From the IMG/VR virus record IMGVR_UViG_3300023435_000009: a DNA stretch of 64,000 bases; one strand, written 5' to 3'. The first letter of the stretch is position 1, and the number at the start of each line of letters is the position of its first letter. Positions 5,120 through 5,647 of this stretch are shown in pieces. This DNA is from a virus. Taxonomy: Duplodnaviria; Caudoviricetes. The translations under genes and the position numbers were made by a program. Under the pieces are notes generated by a model. That model did no database searches. It was not told the origin of the DNA and saw nothing but the letters and a program-made list of their open reading frames with translations.

Positions 5120-5284
5120 TATGGTGAGCTACTCGCCCGCCACCCCCAGCGTCCGCTCGGACAGATAGAGCGACCAACTGGTCGTCTCTGTCCGGGCTTC
5201 TAAGGTGGTAAACAAGCAGGTCATTATCGTCTCCTTCCAATCCTCAGGGCATCCTCACAGGTGGGGTTGCCCTGTTACGCCATA
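5120..5284 (-). ncRNA. Rod-like ~165-nt structured RNA (6S-like shape)
   Basis: Closing TATGG/CCATA, side hairpin CAGGGCA/TGCCCTG, purine-rich bubble, ~100-nt irregular hairpin. Confidence 0.4.
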
Positions 5285-5406
5285 GATAGTCAACAATGTT
5301 GTAGCAATTTCTTGCTTTCATTGTCTTTTATGGTAGCGGGGACTATAGGCTCCCGCCCTTCGTTAAACAAACCATCAGAAGTCCAAAAGAACCCTTTACG
5401 GTTTGT
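5285..5406 (-). ncRNA. omega-RNA scaffold of a truncated TnpB element
   Basis: GCGGGAGCCTATAGTCCCCGC (cf. GGGAGTCTATGGTCCCC at the tnpB 3' end), hairpins, ends ACTATC. Confidence 0.55.
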
Positions 5407-5610
5407 TTAACTTAGCCGCACCCACCATGGGATCTCAAAGAGACCGAGTTTCAAGTTAGAAGCCACATTCAAAACAGCATCTATGGTGAAGCCACATTTG
5501 CCACACTTGAACGTCTTACCTTTCCTGTTACTCTTACGGACCCAATCACACTCAACACACCGCTGAAACCCAAACTCATTCGCAACCTCTCGAAAAGGAA
5601 ACCTTCCTTC
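5407..5610 (-). pseudogene. tnpB: TnpB C-terminal remnant (Zn ribbon + RuvC-III)
   Basis: Start-less frame QRCVECDWVRKSNRKGKTFKCGKCGFTIDAVLNVASNL; not in the supplied ORF track. Confidence 0.8.
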
Positions 5611-5618
5611 TCTGAAAG

Positions 5619-5647
5619 AAGATACCGGGGTGGGAACCCTATGTCAA
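5619..5647 (-). promoter_or_regulatory. Sigma70-type promoter with A-tract
   Basis: GAAAAAAACCC-TTGACA-17 nt-TATCTT directly upstream of the TnpB remnant. Confidence 0.65.

Follow-up and report, generated by a model that had tools for sequence, protein, structure and literature searches.

The 64,000-nt stretch of DNA analysed here (the window) carries the terminal 337 nt of what was a TnpB element, a relic in which a decayed remnant of the nuclease gene overlaps an omegaRNA scaffold of about 140 nt without a single broken pair. We consider it possible, at slightly less than an even chance, that this relic acts as a functional trans guide RNA, transcribed and bound by P0122, an intact TnpB of the same family that appears to be encoded about 201 kb past the end of the window. 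The original prediction for this locus had likewise proposed that the RNA part was kept after loss of the gene, and to that extent it is upheld by a scaffold that retains all of its pairs beside a coding tail that has decayed.

The relic belongs to a 528-kb phage, where it is set between the chaperonin operon and the tRNA array, and the window as a whole is phage DNA, with genes for a ribonucleotide reductase, a Dda/exonuclease V-like helicase, UvsX, an SbcC-like exonuclease, an HNH endonuclease and a chaperonin as well as ten tRNAs. Within this gene complement, a 1463-aa ORF at 23543-27934 (+) has a strong ribonucleotide-reductase match only at residues 1112-1459 and resembles other families only weakly, at about 746-1044; roughly its N-terminal half is unexplained by matches and may be an intein or a fusion.

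Origin and borders of the relic

The relic shares 89% nucleotide identity over 337 nt with the 3' end of the intact gene for P0002, a 423-aa TnpB whose element lies on an IMG/VR megaphage contig of 188 kb (L004/L013). Its translated tail matches PF07282 (Pfam; E=1.3e-5, 25.7 bits, slightly below the 26.3 cut-off) across the C-terminal Zn-finger and RuvC-III region, and the earlier description of the tail as TnpB-derived is borne out by both comparisons. Similarity to the intact relative ceases at both borders. The 3' border is sharp, with agreement up to GACTAT and unrelated sequence beyond, and about 30 loci of the family terminate in the corresponding consensus 4-70 nt past the tnpB stop. 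The relic thus has the layout of an omegaRNA, overlapping the tnpB 3' end, stopping at the right end of the element and giving way to non-homologous flank.

The left end is absent: the 57 nt that separate the upstream phage motif from the junction have no similarity to the left end of the intact relative or to any other sequence compared, which gives no support to an internally deleted mini-element with a retained left end. No further copy of the relic was found in IMG/VR or in the metagenome collection. Possessing neither both transposon ends nor mobilised copies at several sites, the relic is not a mobilised mini-element; on these sequence comparisons it is a truncation. Searches for related loci returned no usable relative from INPHARED at the DNA level, and a chaperonin-based search returned none from IMG/VR, none from the related contigs G001 and G004 and at most 35% identity in INPHARED. 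The only match to a 46-nt scaffold pattern in a metagenome scan was another copy of the insertion in G001, and a scan of genome contigs yielded one distant member.

Coordinates, strand and basis of the features in and around the relic (positions refer to the window)
Feature	Position	Strand	Basis or remark
TnpB-element relic of the P0002/P0122 family (decayed tail and omegaRNA scaffold, last 337 nt)	5286..5622	-	89% identity to L013:2440-2776
Right-end motif GACTAT; family consensus (A/G)ACT(A/G/C)T	5286..5291	-	end-motif comparison across family loci
Promoter-like repeated phage motif GGATCATC-N13-GAGTAG, oriented into the relic	5680..5705	-	motif copies in the window
Copies of GGATCATC-N13-GAGTAG	7575-7600, 37883-37908, 38145-38170, 40154-40179 (+); 5705-5680, 3014-2989, 505-480 (-)	+ and -	
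Sigma70-like candidate promoter TTGACA-17-TATCTT with upstream A7 tract	5619..5647	-	-10 box spans the deletion junction
59-aa junction ORF from ATG 5660	5481..5660	-	sequence reading
GTT (Val) instead of the invariant RuvC-III Asp (D363 of P0002)	5473..5475	-	family alignment
TAA stop in place of a TnpB-frame Gln codon	5407..5409	-	first base U5409 pairs with A5364 in stem A
Scaffold stem A: 13-bp outer helix and inner hairpin	5362..5411	-	folds; covariation in six subfamily members
Core hairpin B, holding the 17-nt motif at 5354-5338	5335..5357	-	covariation in 31 sequences
Hairpin C, variable in sequence within the family yet always a hairpin	5292..5325	-	folds
Guide position, 20 nt directly after the scaffold	5266..5285	-	no similarity to the intact element beyond 5286
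Downstream structured RNA (rod) with GC hairpin and U-tract terminator (5101-5066)	5066..5284	-	fold z-score -5.35
Further scaffold-like orphan remnant, of the family of the window's other tnpB (22265-23497)	4860..4999	-	73% identity to 23364-23506
Intact tnpB (P0001, 359 aa) with its own 3' scaffold; a different subfamily from the relic	920..2038	+	gene at 920-1999

Two candidate promoters point into the relic. The more distant, a copy of GGATCATC-N13-GAGTAG that the original prediction overlooked, lies 58 nt upstream; the motif occurs seven times in the window, with the other six copies followed about 10-50 nt on by a start codon, mostly with a clear ribosome-binding site, and it looks like the phage's own promoter class. 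The nearer candidate, the TTGACA-17-TATCTT with an A-tract that the prediction had noted, is indeed present. Its -10 box straddles the border between flank (TA) and tnpB (TCTT), so that this promoter-like sequence is a product of the deletion junction. To call it a strong promoter of the relic's own goes too far, as a sigma70-like match is by itself not above chance (4 found versus 3.4 expected in an 8-kb scan), and what holds is that a promoter-like sequence is there. Given these candidates, the relic region is probably transcribed. The relic opens with a weak terminator-like hairpin that has a U-rich tail (5623-5601, minus strand) and could form only in transcripts from the upstream phage-type motif. 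Across the 64 kb, TTGACA/-10 sites number only 8, against 3.5 expected from shuffles, and each of the four TnpB-derived units has such a site upstream, with a TTGACA -35 box and a plausible -10, at 885-913 (+), 22078-22106 (+), 5647-5619 (-) and about 5056-5027 (-).

The coding part of the relic is dead as judged from its sequence. Set against five intact or longer members of one 90% cluster and a 33-protein family alignment, the roughly 110 remaining codons contain a 1-nt deletion (a -1 frameshift) at 5596-5593, the substitutions R>G, S>F, S>V and G>D, an A>V that adjoins the lost RuvC-III Asp, the TAA stop, and further I>T and D>N changes, all of them confined to the relic. There is accordingly no complete ORF with the RuvC D/E/D triad and no functional effector gene in cis. 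The tail had been described as start-less, and it has no working start today; the ATG at 5660, however, used to lead in frame over the junction into the TnpB tail, before the 1-nt deletion diverted it into an unrelated 59-aa ORF.

These comparisons establish the insertion of an element, a deletion and a fusion that created a promoter-like sequence as steps in the history of the locus. An element of the P0002/P0122 family once stood at the relic site, and a deletion took its left end together with the first ~940 nt of tnpB, the same event joining the remaining 337 nt to phage DNA with a phage-type promoter motif and generating the sigma70-like promoter at the junction.

The stretch around the relic collects TnpB debris. 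The second orphan remnant (4860-4999) lies right after a terminator and before tRNA-Leu(CAG), on the same strand as the relic, with TTGACA-18-TAATGA at about 5056-5027 (-); its match within the window comprises the last ~133 nt of the other tnpB gene and 9 nt more, and a locus in G001, a related IMG/VR contig, likewise matches it at 72-73% identity. A 238-aa form of the relic's own TnpB family that lacks the N-terminal part (P0123, P0124 and P0011, in the P0002 cluster) is on record on 23 contigs, one of them of 528,282 bp, and 5' truncation of this family therefore seems recurrent in the phage lineage.

Scaffold architecture and its persistence

The scaffold of the relic is built from stem A, core hairpin B and hairpin C, a fold that is common to six members of the subfamily, in which stem A with its inner hairpin is followed by hairpin B with the 17-nt motif in its loop, hairpin C and the end motif. 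Hairpin C is formed in all six members from unrelated sequences. The secondary structure is conserved with covariation, most plainly in hairpin B, where 31 sequences display 17, 12 and 10 double changes at three pairs. RNAalifold on this broad alignment of 31 sequences recovered hairpin B only, and stem A was tested on the six-member subfamily, where 92.9% of the cells of stem A and hairpin B are paired versus 35-49% in slid controls; nine pairs in these two elements vary on both sides, and the observed score was attained in none of 500 shuffles. An Rfam search of positions 1-9000 gave no match at E<=1 besides tRNAs and chance ones, and Rfam need not include this subfamily.

The C-terminal extension of the TnpB family is dual-coded (loci L013-L064; window 5354-5338). 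The loop of core hairpin B consists of the E-P-I-V-P codons and, in a shorter subfamily, a perfect hairpin arises from those for N-R-K-G-F-Y-W. Since the codons double as scaffold, residues of this extension that are invariant in the protein may reflect a constraint on the RNA.

We compared the preservation of the scaffold with the decay of the coding part. The last 139 nt of the relic differ from the intact relative at 13 positions, and of the 42 pairs predicted from the intact relative alone none is broken (simulated mean 3.1, p about 0.01). The predicted minimum free energy of the relic scaffold is -48.6 kcal/mol, lower than both the -41.2 of the intact relative and the -36.2 of the simulations (p=0.0025). 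Two double compensatory changes together with zero broken pairs have a joint p of 0.0014, although one compensatory pair among 13 substitutions arises, by position alone, in 26% of simulations. In equal tests the 5' 171 nt of the relic look random (p 0.34-0.6).

The polarity of the relic-specific changes was set from the five intact cluster members. Three such changes within the scaffold damage the protein (Gln>stop, Ile>Thr and Asp>Asn), all three fall in stem A, and in each case pairing is kept or strengthened. The C>T that made the stop is balanced by a G>A at the position with which it pairs, converting C:G into U:A at U5409/A5364, and at 5405 a U:G became C:G. Nine of the 13 scaffold differences are synonymous and so probably predate the death of the gene, when the progenitor was working and already constrained as RNA, which leaves only the relic-specific damaging changes to inform the period afterwards. 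With relic-specific divergence of only ~4%, the undamaged state of the scaffold is evidence of low power, and gene conversion from intact copies is a further way in which the 3' part of the relic could stay clean. That the damaging changes preserve stem A is, in these structural models, suggestive and not decisive. Decay of the protein remnant beside a structurally perfect scaffold is established within the same models, and it followed the deletion.

Probable partner nuclease, guide and downstream RNA

The nuclease gene closest to the relic, the intact tnpB at 920-1999, had been put forward as its partner on the strength of a shared scaffold. What the two have in common is a 17-nt motif, found at 5354-5338 (-) in the relic and at 1965-1981 (+) in the neighbouring gene, and in a blastn comparison of the relic scaffold with the 3' end of that gene this 17-mer is the sole DNA similarity. 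It encodes the conserved peptide E-(P/S)-(I/M)-V-P, of which I406 and V407 are invariant in the 33-protein alignment, and it forms the loop of the core hairpin across the wider family, occurring in IMG/VR at the ends of several unrelated tnpB subfamilies; the motif therefore marks a broad clade and not a shared scaffold. A further site at 608-624, with two mismatches, lies within a minus-strand ORF that has no TnpB context and was treated as a chance occurrence. The common ACTA(A/T)C end that had been cited in addition is partly coincidence, because the scaffold of the relic ends at GACTAT and its guide starts at 5285. The encoded protein, P0001, is only 25% identical to P0002, its C-terminus lacks the stretch of ~40 aa whose codons form stem A, and its 3' scaffold lacks the corresponding region of ~50 nt. 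P0001 is for these reasons an unlikely partner, and the proposal that it is loaded in trans by the relic is not borne out.

P0122 is likely to be the realistic partner, judging from its sequence. This 423-aa protein belongs to the same 90% cluster as P0002, has intact D/E/D residues and is identical to P0002 in its C-terminal 44 residues, which overlap the scaffold. P0001 and P0002 are carried by 22-24 contigs. All three proteins, P0001, P0002 and P0122, are on record on a 528,282-bp contig, and the index words of P0122 recur without exception (110 of 110) in a stretch ~201 kb past the end of the window in the same genome, word matches that indicate, indirectly, a compatible effector elsewhere in the genome of the relic.

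The relic has a definable guide position, as had been proposed, although it begins one base ahead of the start originally given. No second site for the guide was found in the window, and five exact matches to a guide 16-mer in IMG/VR stand in unrelated contexts and are attributed to chance, so that these searches returned no target. The guide runs directly into the structured rod RNA, with the right end of the relic 2 nt from the first base of its closing stem; no terminator separates the two, and they would share a transcript. In the predicted fold, this stem joins the first five bases of the guide to the far end of the rod RNA, in agreement with the earlier view that the guide doubles as the 5' end of the rod RNA. 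Sequence searches detected no relatives of the rod RNA. Inside the rod RNA, at 5224-5129 (-), is an ORF of 31 codons that has a strong ribosome-binding site (AAGGAG).

Processing by TnpB of the transcript that encodes it, yielding omegaRNA, has been described (PMC10278001), and the guide of a TnpB element matches the same flank where it is preceded by the TAM and not by the scaffold (10.1101/2023.03.14.532601). Were the relic region transcribed from one or both candidate promoters, P0122 from the intact element 201 kb away could bind, and perhaps process at the 5' side, the scaffold with the adjacent 16-20 nt. P0122 would thereby gain an additional guide against genomes that bear the relic flank next to a TAM, namely related phages without the relic, whose genomes would be cut and then repaired from the relic-bearing genome during co-infection. 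The relic would in this way be retained or copied because relic-less relatives are cut and repaired.

Competing explanations and significance

The explanation that competes most closely with a trans guide RNA is that of an inert young relic, a deletion remnant transcribed only through promoters that were already there, with a scaffold left intact by the shortness of the time elapsed or refreshed by recombination. We regard this as quite possible, if on balance doubtful. It accords with a single-copy relic that has no left end, a clearly decaying coding part and little relic-specific divergence, with the other truncated copies (the 238-aa form in the same cluster and the remnant at 4999-4860) and with the frequency at which a lone compensatory pair appears in simulations. 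Relic variants are, moreover, shared mosaically with P0002, P0122 and P0123, and this mosaic suggests recombination among copies. An inert relic does not readily account for the joint occurrence of two compensatory pairs and no broken pair, for a scaffold that is more stable than that of the intact relative while the 5' part behaves randomly, or for a nonsense mutation that is one half of a compensatory pair.

The junction invites an explanation in terms of the rod RNA instead, in which the relic is the 5' leader or promoter donor of a downstream structured RNA of 165-220 nt and the deletion was kept for bringing promoters near. The very stable fold that ends in a terminator and closes 2 nt from the right end, the uninterrupted path from relic to rod and the promoter-like sequence created by the junction are all in keeping with such a chimeric RNA, which we nevertheless judge improbable, since selective preservation of the scaffold stems is left unexplained and the downstream RNA has no detectable relatives and a putative function. 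Loading of the neighbouring TnpB in trans, as first proposed, appears highly improbable. The two loci are close in the genome, share the core-hairpin motif and have a similar distance from motif to end, but the low protein identity, the missing stem A region and the recurrence of an otherwise isolated motif in many unrelated subfamilies all weigh against it.

A trans guide RNA for P0122 would not be new in kind, as effector-less standalone omegaRNAs used in trans are already described in the part of PMC10691335 that summarises Altae-Tran et al. 2021; trans use of such RNAs is also described in 10.1101/2023.03.14.532601. The relic resembles the standalone omegaRNAs of that summary in having a scaffold without an adjacent working effector, a compatible effector elsewhere in the genome and a proposed use in trans that adds a guide. 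It differs in that those are termed 'evidently mobilised' there, whereas the relic is single-copy, lacks the left end and has one candidate promoter from a deletion junction, with its trans activity putative. The PATE-like IS200/IS605 derivatives of Meers et al. (10.1101/2023.03.14.532601) encode omegaRNAs and, like the relic, are protein-less, keep the right end with the omegaRNA and need TnpB from another element; PATEs, however, retain both ends and are able to transpose, whereas the relic has the right end only, together with ~200 nt of defunct tnpB coding sequence. With ISDra2-type TnpB-omegaRNA systems (PMC8612924; processing, PMC10278001; structure, PMC10097598) the relic shares a guide RNA that overlaps the tnpB 3' end, ends at the right end and draws its guide from the flank, while its subfamily is distinguished by being phage-borne and by a C-terminal extension of 40 aa, the codons of which also make up stem A and hairpin B.

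Should the relic prove non-functional, it is an ordinary insertion-sequence remnant. Even so, the comparison fixes the right-end motif, scaffold architecture and guide position for a TnpB family almost confined to huge phages, which is of use for annotation. If it is functional, the guide-RNA half of an OMEGA element can outlive both the nuclease gene and mobility and be expressed from phage promoters, and one phage-borne TnpB can police several loci in co-infection. Such separation of guide from effector is an assumed step on the path from TnpB to CRISPR-Cas12. We also entertain, as a more specific and rather unlikely model, that selection acted on the RNA only once the gene had died, with the nonsense mutation fixed or tolerated as half of a swap that strengthens stem A, and with the non-mobile, promoter-fused omegaRNA established as a fixed gene of the phage, arming a distant TnpB against competing phages without the allele. 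If true, this would represent a first step from a selfish guide to a domesticated, CRISPR-like trans-encoded guide in a megaphage.
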